From the UHGV virus genome UHGV-2202118: a stretch of DNA of 64,000 bases; one strand, written 5' to 3'. This document shows, piece after piece, positions 41,997-57,605 of this stretch (positions are counted from its first letter, which is position 1; every line of letters begins with the position of its first letter). The position numbers and the translations under genes are program-made. The stretch comes from a virus. The notes under the pieces are model-generated. The model did no database searches and was not told where the DNA came from. It was given only the letters and a program-made list of their open reading frames with translations.

Positions 41997-43103
41997 TCAT
42001 TCGCCTTTAGCGTCAGCGCGAACATCTACCAGCAACTGAGGACGAGTACAGTATGGCAGCATGTAAGAGTGAGCTTCGAAGTCAATACCTTCGTCACGGT
42101 CTTTTTCGTATTCGAATACGTACAGTTCCTGACCAAGTGTATTTGCGTAACCCATCTTAGGACATGGACCATATGCAACTTCGAAGATGTTGTTAGCTTC
42201 ACCCAGCATAGCTACGTTAGGGAAAGCATGACCAACACCAACAGTGTCTGCTACGCTGTCAATGCTAACCAGAGTGTGAACCTTACCACGCTTGTCTTTG
42301 AACTTACCGTTGTACTGGACAAACTTAACACCACCGTAGTAGAAAGTATTCATATGAGCCTGAACGCCGTCAGCACCACCAGTTCTCAGAGAACCAGTAA
42401 TCTGTTGCCAAGCCAGTGGAGTCTGCTGTGCAAGATAAGCGTCACGAATCTTAGGATGCTTAACCAGTTTGCTGAAGAATACACGGTCAACAACTACGTG
42501 AATCTCTTCACCGTTGATTACAGTGCCAGTCTTAGCTTCATCTTCCATGTGCATACGCAGTTCTTCAATAGAAGCGTCGATATCAGCATTAGGATTGTCA
42601 AGGTCGAAGTAAATAGTCTTCTTCTCAACGTCGAACTGCTTGTACAGGTCAGCGTACAGAGTACCACGAGCATCAACAACTTTACCCTTCAGAGCTTGCA
42701 TAAACAGGAACTCACGAGTAATATCGAACTTGGTACGAATCTTCATCAGCTTCTTAGCACGTACTACAGCTTCAGTAGTCAGTTCGTTTGCAGTGCCTGG
42801 CTGACGTACACCCTGAATTTCATCAGGAGTGATGCTTTCAACTTCTTTGAAGTACATCATTGGGAAGCTGATTTGACGAACACGCTCAGGTGCGCTAGTC
42901 TCTGCTTTACGGCTATCACGGTCTACCGCATCAAGCAAGCTAACATCCCAATCAGTCAAGTCCATAAGGAAAGTAGTTTGGGTGATTGGTGCTGAACGGA
43001 ACAGACCTAAGTTGGAAATATACCCATAAGTATTTGGGATAGACTGGACTTCACCAGTCAGGTCAGCAAGGAAAAATCTGCTTTTTTCAGAATTAGTCAA
43101 CAT
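41997..43103 (-). CDS. major capsid protein
   Basis: 368 aa, downstream of protease/scaffold and decoration-size ORFs; strong codon usage. Confidence 0.75.
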   Translation of the reverse strand: MLTNSEKSRFFLADLTGEVQSIPNTYGYISNLGLFRSAPITQTTFLMDLTDWDVSLLDAVDRDSRKAETSAPERVRQISFPMMYFKEVESITPDEIQGVRQPGTANELTTEAVVRAKKLMKIRTKFDITREFLFMQALKGKVVDARGTLYADLYKQFDVEKKTIYFDLDNPNADIDASIEELRMHMEDEAKTGTVINGEEIHVVVDRVFFSKLVKHPKIRDAYLAQQTPLAWQQITGSLRTGGADGVQAHMNTFYYGGVKFVQYNGKFKDKRGKVHTLVSIDSVADTVGVGHAFPNVAMLGEANNIFEVAYGPCPKMGYANTLGQELYVFEYEKDRDEGIDFEAHSYMLPYCTRPQLLVDVRADAKGE

Positions 43104-43136: not shown

Positions 43137-43514
43137 TTACAGGCCAGTTGGTACGAAATCAATACCTTTAGCAGCCAGAGCTTTCTTGACTTTAGTAGCA
43201 TCAACTCTTGATTCAAGAGTTAGCAGGTCTTTCAGTTCTGCATCACGGTGGATACCTACTACTTTCAACTGACCATGATAAGACAGTTGCAGGTCTGCGT
43301 AGAAATTAACGATACATACAGAGTCTGCTTGGGCTTCTTCTCCAGCTTGTACCTTAGTACCATCTGCTTTCAGAACTTCACCTACACGATACTCTGTAGA
43401 TGCCTGTGGAGTGTACTCTTTACGAGAGTGGCCTGTTGGGGTAATCTGTTCCCAAAGAATGATATCATTCAGAGGTTCTCTGTTACCTAACTTAGTAAAA
43501 CCTTGATATGCCAT
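43137..43514 (-). CDS. head protein (decoration-like, unknown)
   Basis: 125-aa ORF between scaffold/protease and capsid genes. Confidence 0.4.
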   Translation of the reverse strand: MAYQGFTKLGNREPLNDIILWEQITPTGHSRKEYTPQASTEYRVGEVLKADGTKVQAGEEAQADSVCIVNFYADLQLSYHGQLKVVGIHRDAELKDLLTLESRVDATKVKKALAAKGIDFVPTGL

Positions 43515-55588: not shown

Positions 55589-55960
55589 ATGAAAGCTAAG
55601 AGTGCAAAAGACTTTTATTGCTTCCTACAATCCTATATCAATTCCGTGCAAAATGGTGAAAGGTACAACCTTAATGATGTTATCCCAACACCTTTGACAT
55701 GGAGACTCAGTAAATGGCCTGAAGAAGATATTACACCAACAAGCGAACAACGCACCTACAAACCTGAAATCAATATTCCAGACTCTGAGAATCTATTATA
55801 TCCAATGTTCCATATCGTTGGACTTGGAAGATTCCTTATGGATATCCAGTATGTAATTGGTAAAGGTTATAAGGCTAAAGGTATTGTTGTTGGTGATGTA
55901 TCTCCGCATCACAAAGGTTATTTTAGACTAAACGCACATTTAGAGGCTAAAAAGAAATGA
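55589..55960 (+). CDS. hypothetical protein, paralog of the N-terminal domain of the Ig-like protein
   Basis: 123 aa; MKAKSAKDFYCFLQSYINSVQNGERYNL aligns with MIKAKTYPDFKEFVKGFVANVKAGKRYDF of the next gene; ATGA overlap with next gene. Confidence 0.5.
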   Translation: MKAKSAKDFYCFLQSYINSVQNGERYNLNDVIPTPLTWRLSKWPEEDITPTSEQRTYKPEINIPDSENLLYPMFHIVGLGRFLMDIQYVIGKGYKAKGIVVGDVSPHHKGYFRLNAHLEAKKK

Positions 55961-57090
55961 TTAAAGCAAAGACTTACCCAGACTTCAAAGAGTTTGTGAA
56001 GGGCTTCGTTGCAAATGTAAAGGCTGGTAAGAGATATGATTTTAGAACATATCAAGAGGCTATTTTACCACTTACTTATAGTTCATATTGGCCTGAAGCT
56101 GATATTGCAGAAGTTGAGAAGTTTGACTACAAACCAGACTACAAAGTCCCATTTAGTGATGAGTTGCTTTACAGCGTTGGTGCTCAAATGAGAACTTCTG
56201 ACTTCTTCATGGACTTACAATATGCAATTATCAATGGTAAAGACGTTGATACAGTTTATTGTGAATGGCTGGCAAGAGTTAAACCATTCTCAATGCTGAA
56301 TGCTAAGCTGAAGGATGCTATCAAGCCACCATCAATCACTCAGCAACCAACCAACCAAACAGTAAATGAAGGTGGCACACTTACCCTAAGTGTTATTGCA
56401 ACTAATGCCACTGGATATCAATGGAAAAAGGGTGGTGAGGATATCACTAGTGCCACATCTGCAACCTACACAAAACAGTCTGTAGTACCTTCTGATGCTG
56501 GTTCCTATACTTGTGTTGTGTCTGGAGAGGCTGGGACAAGTGTTACCTCAGATGCGGCAACAGTTACTGTCAACGCACTGCCTGTGATTACACAGCAACC
56601 TTCTGGTCAGACTATCAATGAGGGTGGAGACATCAACTTGGTAGTGGCTGCAACAGGTGCAACAGGTTATCAGTGGAAGAAAGATGGCTCTGACATCACT
56701 TCAGCTACAGATGCTACCTATAGCAAGTCCGGTGCGCTGCCAGCAGATGCTGGTTCATACACTTGCGTTGTAACAGGTGCAGGTGGTGCAGTGGAATCTA
56801 ATGCTGCTGTAGTAACTGTGAATGCACTTCCGGTAATCACTCAACAGCCAACCAATCAAGAAATCACTGAAGGTGAGACCTTAACGCTGAATGTTGTGGC
56901 AACAGGTGCAACAGGTTACCAGTGGAAGAAAGGTGAGGAAGACATCCTCGATGCAACTGGTGCAACTTACACCAAAGAAGGTGCAACCGCTGCTGATGCA
57001 GGAAGCTACACCTGTGTAGTTACTGGTGCAGGTGGCTCTGTAACGTCTAATGCAGCAACAGTTACAGTTAACCCAGTAGGAGGGGCATAA
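55957..57090 (+). CDS. protein with three tandem Ig-like domains (Hoc-like candidate)
   Basis: 377 aa; three repeats of about 90 aa each: ITQQP(T/S)xQT(V/I)NEGG...ATGYQWKK(G/D)G(E/S)DI...DAGSYTCVV(S/T)G(E/A)(A/G)G...ATVTVN. Confidence 0.6.
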   Translation: MIKAKTYPDFKEFVKGFVANVKAGKRYDFRTYQEAILPLTYSSYWPEADIAEVEKFDYKPDYKVPFSDELLYSVGAQMRTSDFFMDLQYAIINGKDVDTVYCEWLARVKPFSMLNAKLKDAIKPPSITQQPTNQTVNEGGTLTLSVIATNATGYQWKKGGEDITSATSATYTKQSVVPSDAGSYTCVVSGEAGTSVTSDAATVTVNALPVITQQPSGQTINEGGDINLVVAATGATGYQWKKDGSDITSATDATYSKSGALPADAGSYTCVVTGAGGAVESNAAVVTVNALPVITQQPTNQEITEGETLTLNVVATGATGYQWKKGEEDILDATGATYTKEGATAADAGSYTCVVTGAGGSVTSNAATVTVNPVGGA

Positions 57091-57554
57091 TGCAACTCTC
57101 ACAGAAAGGTTTAGAAGCTATTAAGTTCTTTGAAGGTCTTAAGCTGGAGGCTTACGAAGATTCTGCTGGAATCCCCACAATTGGGTATGGGACAATCCGT
57201 ATTGGTGGGAAGCCTGTTAAGATGGGTATGAAGATTACCGCTGAACAAGCTGAACAGTATCTTCTTGCAGATGTTGAAAAATTCGTTGCAGCAGTGAACA
57301 AAGCCATCAAGGTTCCAACTTCTCAGAACGAGTTTGATGCACTTGTAAGTGAAACATACAACATTGGCATCACAGCTATGCAGGACTCTACATTTATCAA
57401 GCGCCACAACGATGGTAATAAGGTCGGTTGTGCAGAAGCTATGCAATGGTGGAACAAGGTTACAGTCAAAGGCAAGAAGGTCACCTCAAACGGCCTGAAA
57501 AACAGACGTAGAATGGAAGCTGACATTTATCTTGACAGTGTATATCCAAAGTAA
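57090..57554 (+). CDS. endolysin, GH24 (T4-lysozyme-like) muramidase
   Basis: 154 aa; catalytic arrangement LEAYEDSAGIPTIGYG (Glu, 8 residues, Asp, 5 residues, Thr). Confidence 0.8.
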   Translation: MQLSQKGLEAIKFFEGLKLEAYEDSAGIPTIGYGTIRIGGKPVKMGMKITAEQAEQYLLADVEKFVAAVNKAIKVPTSQNEFDALVSETYNIGITAMQDSTFIKRHNDGNKVGCAEAMQWWNKVTVKGKKVTSNGLKNRRRMEADIYLDSVYPK

Positions 57555-57564
57555 TATCTTCATA

Positions 57565-57588
57565 GGCTCCTTCGGGAGCCTTTTTTAT
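57565..57588 (+). terminator. rho-independent terminator GGCTCC-TTCG-GGAGCC + T6
   Basis: Perfect 6-bp GC-rich stem, TTCG tetraloop, TTTTTT. Confidence 0.7.
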
Positions 57589-57605
57589 TTTCTAAGGAGA
57601 AAACT

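Follow-up and report, generated by a model that had tools for sequence, protein, structure and literature searches.

An orthologue of the Felixounavirus hexamer decoration protein and a stand-alone copy of its capsid anchor in the endolysin gene block of virus genome UHGV-2202118

Gene content and boundaries of the locus

The analyzed window, a stretch of 64,000 nucleotides of UHGV-2202118, represents a Felixounavirus, i.e., a Felix O1/wV8-like myophage. The locus under study contains three consecutive genes coding for a 123-aa protein, a 377-aa protein, and a T4 lysozyme-type endolysin (Table 1). Translational coupling is apparent at both gene junctions: the start codon of the 377-aa gene overlaps the stop codon of the preceding gene (AAATGA), the start codon of the endolysin gene overlaps the stop codon of the 377-aa gene (TAATG), and the final codons of the 377-aa gene include the Shine-Dalgarno sequence of the endolysin gene (GGAGGGG). 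The position of the 377-aa gene directly 5′ of the endolysin gene, as proposed in an earlier, sequence-only reading of the window, was borne out by this overlap and by the lysozyme family match of the downstream product. The synteny around the 377-aa gene is kept in the phages wV8, Moogle, and phiEa104.

The 5′ limit of the three-gene block is set by a terminator-like hairpin that separates the 123-aa gene from the upstream gene (54951-55541). This hairpin was missed by the terminator scan because its T-run is short. The wV8 annotation records an identical GGGGCTGATGCCCC element as a Rho-independent terminator. A second, intrinsic terminator closes the block downstream of the endolysin gene. 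The promoter scan yielded 4 sigma-70-like sites vs. 8.5 in shuffled controls; the stretch from the upstream terminator to the 123-aa gene contained none of them, and no promoter is claimed. In Felix O1, the corresponding ORFs 36 and 37 both reach maximal expression late. The 377-aa gene lies outside the structural module, at a distance of 12.8 kb from the gene of the major capsid protein (MCP), and the gene of its Bas63 orthologue is likewise located more than 10 kb outside the structural module (PMC12609058).

Table 1. Features of the three-gene block and of the capsid genes in the window.
Feature	Position	Strand	Evidence
Terminator-like hairpin, AGGGGC-TGAT-GCCCCT followed by TTTAACTATTT	55550..55575	+	Read from sequence
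Anchor-only paralogue ORF, 123 aa	55589-55960	+	
Hex-Dec ORF, 377 aa	55957-57090	+	
Capsid-binding domain (CapBD) with Arg79 and Arg107	55957..56331	+	Few substitutions relative to the CapBD of 9NCF_S and 9C2D_S
Ig-like (I-set) domain 1, residues 126-207	56332..56577	+	Pfam Ig_3/I-set; repeat alignment; AF2; Foldseek
Ig-like (I-set) domain 2, residues 208-290	56578..56826	+	Pfam; repeat alignment; AF2; Foldseek
Ig-like (I-set) domain 3, residues 291-377, and stop codon	56827..57090	+	Alignment to Bas63 Hex-Dec
Endolysin ORF, 154 aa, T4 lysozyme-type	57090-57554	+	Phage_lysozyme PF00959, E=1.6e-40; phrog_7 (endolysin)
Intrinsic terminator, stem AGGCTCC-TTCG-GGAGCCT followed by TTTTTTATTTT	57564..57591	+	Terminator scan; terminator also annotated at this site in wV8
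MCP, 368 aa, HK97 fold, T=9, partner of Hex-Dec	41997..43103	-	phmmer: 9NCF_A, 2.1e-246; 9C2D_A, 3.2e-233; residue 221 is Asp
125-aa protein, candidate trimeric beta-tulip "Dec"	43137..43514	-	Match to phrog_4146 ("tail protease"); adjoins the MCP gene

Identity of the 377-aa protein and its capsid anchor

In phmmer searches, the 377-aa protein aligned from its first residue with the hexamer decoration protein Hex-Dec of phage Bas63 (PDB 9NCF_S; E=6e-295) and with gp20 of phage Sf14 (PDB 9C2D_S; E=1.4e-169). Its first 362 residues are nearly identical to 9NCF_S and differ by scattered substitutions only. By sequence, the protein is thus the hexamer decoration protein known in this group of phages as Hex-Dec (Bas63) or gp20 (Sf14), and this identity has already been published for the orthologues. 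Cryo-EM studies of Bas63 and Sf14, both from 2025, showed that a monomeric N-terminal anchor sits at the center of those hexamers of the T=9 head that adjoin the pentamers, and that a flexible Ig part points outward from it (PMC12609058, PMC11821841). Bas63 Hex-Dec consists of a capsid-binding domain (CapBD) and an Ig part and occupies the hexamers at the facet edges only (PMC12609058). In the Sf14 protein, residues 1-118 form the anchor of the monomer, and the arginines R79 and R107 form salt bridges to Asp221 of the MCP (PMC11821841). Both arginines are present in the 377-aa protein, and their partner Asp221 is present in the MCP encoded in the window. The location and stoichiometry of Hex-Dec in this phage are transferred from the orthologues on the grounds of sequence identity and the kept contact residues, and would accordingly be the same.

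Orthologues have also been found in virions by mass spectrometry, namely Sf14 gp20 (PMC11821841) and Felix O1 gp36. The 125-aa protein encoded next to the MCP is probably the second decoration protein, "Dec," of this capsid. Its match to a PHROG labeled "tail protease" corresponds to a mis-annotation that the Dec protein of Bas63 carries as well (PMC12609058).

The 377-aa protein itself is labeled a tail protein in most GenBank records, including a "major tail protein" entry in Felix O1, and in PHROG 3995 (phrog_3995), and PHROGs of Ig-containing major tail proteins match its Ig region too. The latter matches are confined to the Ig repeats, however, and the label is contradicted by cryo-EM, which places the nearly identical orthologue in the centers of capsid hexamers (9NCF_S, 9C2D_S; PMC12609058, PMC11821841), and by the authors of the Bas63 study, who explicitly call the annotation wrong (PMC12609058). 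A tail protein is therefore an extremely improbable interpretation, and the label was rejected.

Ig-like repeats

Three stretches downstream of the CapBD match the Pfam families Ig_3 (1.6e-32), Ig_2, and I-set (7.8e-24), each with a score that exceeds the respective gathering threshold. The repeats comprise 83-84 aa each (period of 249-252 nt) and share pairwise identities of 69-73%. The sequence-only reading had already recognized three tandem Ig-like repeats; their number stands, but the length of about 90 aa given there was too large. A single-sequence AF2 model reached a pLDDT of approximately 90 over residues 125-372, compared to 30-50 on the CapBD, and the best Foldseek matches of the modeled Ig part were tandem Ig arrays, i.e., titin I67-I69 (TM 0.65), Robo1, and LRIG1 (E of approximately 1e-20 to 1e-21). 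The profile and structure searches suggested by the earlier reading thus agree with an Ig fold. The Ig part is acidic (pI of approximately 4.1).

The third repeat is the counterpart of the fourth, C-terminal Ig domain of Bas63 Hex-Dec, as residues 195-376 align to residues 278-459 of the latter. Bas63 (Escherichia phage JohannRWettstein) belongs to the same genus, has the same MCP, carries its Hex-Dec gene at the same place beside the endolysin gene, and possesses a nearly identical CapBD. Ig1, Ig2, and the last Ig domain are collinear in the two proteins, but Bas63 Hex-Dec has four Ig domains and a length of 460 aa, whereas the 377-aa protein lacks the third of them. Sf14 gp20 (Shigella phage, Mooglevirus; PDB 9C2D/9C3A chain S) has three Ig domains, a length of 372 aa, and both R79 and R107, but it stems from a different genus and its Ig domains are more divergent. 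In 27 IMG/VR loci the homologs fell into size classes of 210, 294, 377, and 461 aa according to their number of Ig domains, and comparison of these sequences indicates that the Ig count varies from one to four between isolates by gain and loss of whole repeats.

Comparison with T4 Hoc and T5 pb10

With 377 vs. 376 aa, a string of three Ig-like domains, an acidic fiber, and a non-lattice monomer at the hexamer centers, the protein resembles Hoc of phage T4. The sequence-only reading had pointed out this agreement in size and Ig content together with a reversed domain order, and had proposed a surface-exposed decoration protein. All of this holds: the reversed order is stated explicitly for Bas63 Hex-Dec (PMC12609058), and the orthologues were seen by cryo-EM on the capsid hexamers (PMC12609058, PMC11821841). 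Since orthologues occur in virions of Sf14 and Felix O1 and the repeats are modeled as Ig domains, the proposal of a decoration protein also stands up to the observations that could have overturned it. The exposure of the three Ig domains on the head of this particular phage is assumed by analogy to the orthologues.

A true homolog of T4 Hoc, including a circularly rearranged capsid-binding domain, could account for these likenesses, and both a BLASTP match to T4 Hoc (E=2e-5) and matches to Hoc-like PHROGs appear to point in this direction. The similarity lies entirely in the Ig region, however, with an identity of 25%, and the Hoc-like PHROG profiles align to residues 121-371 only. Comparison of the CapBD profile with T4 Hoc gave an hhalign probability of 0.35%, and the CapBD of Bas63 is larger, topologically distinct, and characterized by a pseudo-C2 symmetry that is absent from Hoc (PMC12609058). 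In contrast to Hex-Dec, the anchor of T4 Hoc is C-terminal, unrelated in sequence, and of a different topology (PMC12609058), and T4 Hoc occupies all hexamers instead of only the 60 pentamer-proximal ones. Homology to Hoc is thus very improbable, and membership in the Hoc family was rejected because the anchor is N-terminal and a Hoc-type C-terminal capsid-binding domain is lacking. On sequence evidence, the anchor domains of the two proteins are analogous and not homologous.

The third Ig domain also matched an Ig domain of a "Decoration protein" (5LXK/8ZVI; E=3.3e-11), which we take to be pb10 of phage T5, as does the comparison in the Sf14 paper. T5 pb10 likewise consists of an N-terminal capsid binder followed by a C-terminal Ig-like domain, but it has one Ig domain only, and no relationship of its N-terminal domain to the CapBD was detected. 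A search of the CapBD profile against all PDB sequences (E<=10) retrieved only 9NCF_S, 9C2D_S, and one chance match. Membership in the pb10 family was rejected as well, because the match to 5LXK/8ZVI is restricted to the Ig domain and a pb10-type N-terminal domain is missing.

Distribution of the anchor domain

The capsid anchor is rare and accounts for no more than 12 clusters (50% identity) in a collection of 1.84 billion proteins. A homologous CapBD (profile E=2.5e-8) occurs in gp38 of Erwinia phage phiEa21-4 and its phiEa104 homolog (Kolesnikvirus; P0057, L033), which are annotated as "conserved structural protein." The gene order in these phages is a homolog of the gene preceding the 123-aa gene of the window, the decoration gene, and the endolysin gene. 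Their decoration protein has, in place of the I-set repeats, one Ig domain of the Big_2 type, and a stand-alone paralogue upstream of it is absent. The family is a modular decoration system with a conserved anchor and interchangeable Ig modules: members of Felixounavirus and Mooglevirus carry one to four I-set domains, and the Erwinia phages a Big_2 domain. Scans of viral contigs did not recover two further relatives, the stand-alone paralogue P0055 and the Ig-less P0059, and for P0056 retrieved only Felixounavirus and Mooglevirus loci but not its own genome.

The anchor-only paralogue

The 123-aa protein, which corresponds to wV8 gp42, Felix O1 gp37, and PHROG 4463 ("unknown function"), had been regarded in the earlier reading as a stand-alone paralog of the N-terminal domain, and the searches agree with this view. 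It shares 37% identity with residues 2-94 of Hex-Dec (E=1e-16) and matches 9NCF_S and 9C2D_S in phmmer searches (E=2.5e-11 and 1.1e-10, respectively). A profile built from the paralogues spans residues 2-123 of the solved anchor in 9NCF_S (E=2.4e-49), and the duplication therefore comprises the whole anchor domain. Its AF2 model, based on a 13-sequence alignment, has a pLDDT of 59 and was used only for Foldseek ranking, in which 9C2D_S and 9NCF_S came out on top (TM 0.61-0.62; next matches below 0.3). The protein ends after the CapBD without an Ig domain and has a pI of 9.1. Both contact arginines are missing, R79 being replaced by an invariant glycine (Gly78) and R107 by His or Gln (position 107).

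The dN/dS ratio of the paralogue is 0.10-0.19 across genera. In the phylogenetic tree, the paralogue clusters with P0055, a divergent stand-alone copy, which indicates an old duplicate that has been preserved. Judged by these sequence comparisons, it is a genuine, full-length copy of the anchor under purifying selection. An internal deletion of approximately 223 bp was nevertheless found in the paralogue gene of about 19 of 212 phage records (approximately 9% of the sequenced relatives), which form the SP116 clade, and in SP3_SHan-2021 the paralogue was fused with Hex-Dec by recombination. The protein has no transmembrane segment, and searches against Pfam and the PHROGs revealed no known lysis or defense domain. 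Felix O1 gp37 was absent from a virion proteome in which smaller and rarer proteins were found, but this is weak evidence because that proteome, from 2010, was incomplete (17-18 proteins vs. at least 22-23 now known). The cryo-EM papers on Bas63 and Sf14 mention neither the paralogue nor any paralogy (PMC12609058, PMC11821841), and the wV8 paper holds no data on the paralogue or Hex-Dec genes. The paralogue is the only part of the locus that has not been described before.

Discussion

In the proposed architecture of the decorated head, one Hex-Dec monomer per hexamer would enter the acidic center of the hexamer with its mostly helical CapBD of approximately 120 N-terminal residues. Of the hexamers of the T=9 head, the 60 quasi-3-fold ones next to the pentamers would serve as sites; there, Arg79 and Arg107 would tether the protein through salt bridges with MCP Asp221, and the three flexible, acidic I-set Ig domains would project from this anchor as a short fiber. 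Expression would take place from the terminator-bounded, translationally coupled late block of the anchor-only paralogue, Hex-Dec, and endolysin genes. Taken as a whole, this explanation, centered on the Hex-Dec identity and the late gene block, is highly probable.

The Ig fiber may allow the particle to adhere weakly and reversibly to glycans, mucus, or the surfaces of cells, or may influence particle aggregation, as has been proposed for T4 Hoc, for which mucin and aggregation phenotypes are known. In the literature, no adhesion or aggregation phenotype was reported for any Felixounavirus Hex-Dec, and no functional study of an Ig-like decoration of these phages was found.

The paralogue arose by an ancient tandem duplication of the anchor domain and carries no Ig part. 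For it, we favor with low confidence the role of a dispensable, non-virion accessory of late Hex-Dec assembly that is not a stable capsid component and that could, for example, chaperone or regulate the loading of Hex-Dec. One alternative is a minor Ig-less decoration protein, which would fill the 20 true-3-fold hexamers closed to Hex-Dec or compete for its sites and thus tune the fiber density. The paralogue retains the complete CapBD fold, is expressed late and translated together with Hex-Dec, and is basic (pI 9.1), while Asp221 lines the hexamer center (PMC11821841), and its changed contact residues could suit the shifted Asp221 geometry of the true-3-fold hexamers (PMC11821841). However, neither cryo-EM study showed density on other hexamers (PMC12609058, PMC11821841), and the absence of gp37 from the Felix O1 virion proteome, the loss of both capsid-contact arginines, and the existence of natural isolates without the gene argue against this alternative, which is unlikely.

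A somewhat better candidate, although still a doubtful one, is a non-capsid function gained by the paralogue, such as in lysis timing or in interaction with the host or its defense, or an almost neutral remnant of the duplication event. Its location in the endolysin block, its dispensability in about 9% of the sequenced relatives, the changed contact residues, and the phiEa21-4/phiEa104 lineage with the same Hex-Dec/endolysin synteny but no paralogue are compatible with this explanation. Neutrality is contradicted by the dN/dS of 0.1-0.19 across genera and by the age of the retained duplicate as indicated by its grouping with P0055, and the lack of a transmembrane segment and of a known lysis or defense domain counts against a role in these processes. 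It may tentatively be considered, as a bolder and rather doubtful reading, that the paralogue is an undescribed third player in head decoration: an Ig-less "blank" on true-3-fold hexamers, pentamers, or procapsid hexamers, a competitor of Hex-Dec that sets the number of Ig fibers per head, or a chaperone that keeps the Hex-Dec anchor in solution until capsids have expanded. Such a mechanism would be easily testable because natural deletion and chimeric alleles exist.

For the main protein, the value of these results is confirmatory and corrective: a Hoc-like decoration protein of reversed polarity had been predicted correctly from the sequence alone, and the widespread "tail protein" label is wrong in this genome too. 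The modular family is of relevance to phage-display scaffolds and to the engineering of Felix O1-like therapeutic phages that are to be retained at mucosal surfaces. We know of no phage whose decoration protein is controlled by a shortened version of its anchor. If the paralogue regulates or complements decoration, this would represent a new mechanism.

Gene organization

The ORF map of the region revealed three close-packed plus-strand genes, which encode a 123-aa protein, a 377-aa protein (termed Hex-Dec after its Bas63 orthologue) and a T4-lysozyme-type endolysin (Pfam PF00959, E=1.6e-40; phrog_7; see table). The block is bounded upstream by a GGGGC-TGAT-GCCCC hairpin, which carries a terminator annotation in wV8, and downstream by a canonical intrinsic terminator. 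The first two genes overlap at AAATGA, and at the second junction (TAATG) the endolysin ATG overlaps the stop codon of Hex-Dec. The endolysin Shine-Dalgarno sequence, GGAGGGG, is located within the final codons of the 377-aa gene; within 57066-57092, GTAGGAGGGGCA both encodes the C-terminal 'VGGA' of Hex-Dec and serves as this ribosome-binding site. This placement and the TAATG overlap link a head-decoration gene to a lysis enzyme by translational coupling. More than 200 Felixounavirus genomes, among them those of Felix O1, wV8, LF82 phages and BASEL phages, match the region at 95-97% identity; in wV8 the block comprises gp42 (hypothetical), gp41 ('tail protein') and the endolysin gene. This enterobacterial Felixounavirus locus also occurs, at 98% protein identity, in GenBank entry GU169904.1 ('Staphylococcus phage SA1', 143190-143558), whose assembly is probably chimeric or contaminated.

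Features of the gene block and of other regions of the window
Feature	Position	Strand	Remarks
123-aa protein (paralogue)	55589-55960	+	ORF
377-aa protein (Hex-Dec)	55957-57090	+	ORF
154-aa protein (endolysin)	57090-57554	+	ORF
Canonical intrinsic terminator	57564-57591		Downstream end of block
Major capsid protein (MCP)	41997-43103	-	12.8 kb from Hex-Dec gene; Asp221 present
125-aa ORF	43137-43514	-	Adjoins MCP gene; matches phrog_4146 ('tail protease')
Array of 15 tRNA genes	49245-52296	-
471-aa DUF2828/DUF7788/VWA-like protein	52462-53877	-	Adjoins tRNA array; PHROG 850 label 'RNA-binding protein'

Hex-Dec as capsid decoration protein

A PDB sequence search with Hex-Dec retrieved two near-identical solved chains, the 460-aa 'Immunoglobulin-like domain protein' of Bas63 (9NCF chain S, E=6e-295) and the 372-aa 'putative tail protein' of Sf14 (9C2D/9C3A chain S, E=1.4e-169). 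Both chains represent the T=9 head's second decoration protein, named Hex-Dec in Bas63 (PMC12609058) and gp20 in Sf14 (PMC11821841). In both heads it is a monomer whose N-terminal domain occupies the centres of pentamer-proximal hexamers. Arg79 and Arg107 of gp20, in the capsid-binding domain (CapBD) at its N terminus, are salt-bridged to Asp221 in three MCP subunits (PMC11821841); both arginines are present in the Hex-Dec of the window, whose MCP is virtually identical to those of Bas63 and Sf14. Orthologues were found by mass spectrometry in virions of Sf14 (PMC11821841) and of Felix O1, where the protein (gp36, a two-Ig variant of 31.6 kDa) was at that time taken, as a guess, for the major tail protein. 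By transfer from the near-identical solved orthologues, the 377-aa protein can be identified as the presumptive hexamer-centre decoration protein of the head. According to the authors of the Bas63 structure, the domains run in the order opposite to that of T4 Hoc, more than 10 kb separates the gene from the structural module, and the protein is mis-annotated as 'tail protein' in most genomes (PMC12609058). The Hoc-like surface decoration with reversed domain order put forward in the sequence-only reading is thus established in orthologues by both studies (PMC12609058, PMC11821841), and location, architecture and Hoc analogy of Hex-Dec are already known, having been published in 2025. The 'tail protease' label is likewise a mis-annotation, borne by Dec, a trimeric beta-tulip decoration protein (PMC12609058).

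Ig repeats and module exchange

Residues ~125-372 of Hex-Dec consist of three repeats with a period of 249-252 nt and a mutual identity of 69-73%, which match Pfam Ig_3 (1.6e-32), Ig_2 and I-set (7.8e-24), all above gathering scores. Single-sequence AlphaFold2 prediction reached a pLDDT of ~90 across exactly this region, and Foldseek ranked arrays of tandem Ig domains highest, among them titin I67-I69, Robo1 and LRIG1 (E 1e-20 to 1e-21). In the solved orthologues the Ig-like domains downstream of CapBD are predicted ones, and their flexibility prevents resolving them (PMC12609058, PMC11821841). Since gene layout, paralogy and Ig repeats were all found in the sequence, the earlier observation is confirmed; number and fold of the repeats hold, and the sole correction concerns their length, which is 83-84 aa instead of ~90 aa. 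The acidic Ig fibre (pI ~4.1) may confer weak adhesion or control aggregation, as proposed for Hoc.

T4 Hoc (376 aa) resembles Hex-Dec in the Ig region only (25% identity, E=2e-5), alignments to Hoc-like PHROGs are limited to residues 121-371, and the CapBD profile did not match Hoc (hhalign probability 0.35%). Searched against the PDB, this profile retrieved nothing beyond the two CapBD chains (9NCF_S, 9C2D_S), and therefore the T5 pb10-type decoration protein (5LXK/8ZVI; E=3.3e-11) shares only the Ig domain. Membership in either family was rejected on these grounds: Hex-Dec is Hoc-like in action, yet outside the Hoc and pb10 families.

The number of Ig domains varies. The window protein lacks exactly one repeat of its Bas63 counterpart, the third, and the genes of 27 IMG/VR relatives fall into four discrete size classes, 210, 294, 377 and 461 aa, which represent 1-4 Ig domains, in agreement with the variation reported in PMC12609058. 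A 209-aa variant (P0053) leaves the frame within Ig1 (…GYQWKRMVRISLV…) and represents either a truncated frameshift allele or an error in sequencing; similar premature stops were noted for CHB7 gp95 (PMC11821841).

The anchor is rare, with only 12 clusters among 1.84 billion representative proteins in the CapBD profile search, and in its more distant relatives this N-terminal domain precedes differing modules: one Big_2 domain (P0057, P0058), one I-set domain (P0060) or a Lys/Ser-rich low-complexity tail without Ig (P0059, 153 aa, whose genome was not found in a scan of a viral contig collection). P0057 is a protein of the Erwinia phages phiEa104/phiEa21-4 (Kolesnikvirus), annotated as 'conserved structural protein'. 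These phages share the gene order of the window (L033, 3380-5138), with a homologue of the 196-aa gene that precedes the block in the window, the decoration gene and the endolysin, but the anchor bears one Big_2 domain in place of the I-set repeats and the stand-alone paralogue is lacking. As P0057 occupies the same position directly upstream of the endolysin, the anchor/endolysin arrangement is an ancestral trait of the Ounavirinae; what has been swapped on the conserved anchor is the displayed Ig module.

The anchor-only paralogue

The 123-aa paralogue is the only undescribed part of the locus. Its proposed relationship to the N-terminal domain was borne out by 37% identity to Hex-Dec residues 2-94 (E=1e-16), and its profile spans the entire solved CapBD (E=2.4e-49). 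For its low-confidence AF2 model (pLDDT 59), Foldseek ranked the two CapBD chains first (TM 0.61-0.62; all others <0.3). The dN/dS values are 0.10 versus wV8 and 0.19 versus Moogle; the gene is genuine, and the anchor is copied in full. It belongs to a narrow, separate family (PHROG 4463; 51 clusters, each at least 68% identical), which forms a clade apart from the Ig-bearing anchors in a neighbour-joining tree. Each clade has one deep-branching member (P0055 and P0056), and the duplication is thus old. Both capsid-contact arginines are replaced, R79 by an invariant Gly and R107 by His or Gln, and the paralogue is basic (pI 9.1 versus 6.3 for CapBD).

Transcription of Felix O1 ORFs 36 and 37 is maximal late. 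Felix O1 gp37, the equivalent of the paralogue according to the FO1a record, was not among the identified virion proteins, although 9.7-kDa and 12-copy proteins were detected there. Both cryo-EM papers report that the remaining hexamers show no density, and neither mentions the paralogue (PMC12609058, PMC11821841). In the SP116 clade (~19 of 212 Felixounavirus phage records; isolation hosts E. coli, Salmonella and Shigella), a ~223-bp internal deletion has left a non-coding remnant of the gene (L003, 2306-2497). Salmonella phage SP3_SHan-2021 carries a single chimeric gene (L002, 2501-3379) in which residues 1-48 come from the paralogue and the remainder from Hex-Dec, with the junction at the WPExDI motif common to both, evidently by homologous recombination between the two anchor copies.

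The paralogue could conceivably be a minor capsid-bound component, or could serve a function unrelated to the capsid. It is co-expressed late and translationally coupled, is under purifying selection, has lost the contact residues, does not occur in the virion data and is naturally dispensable; this combination fits best with an accessory of Hex-Dec assembly that is neither essential nor part of the virion. As Hex-Dec itself is already described, the role of its anchor-only paralogue is the residual, modest question at this locus, and the SP116-clade deletions and the SP3_SHan-2021 chimera are ready-made natural mutants for probing it.
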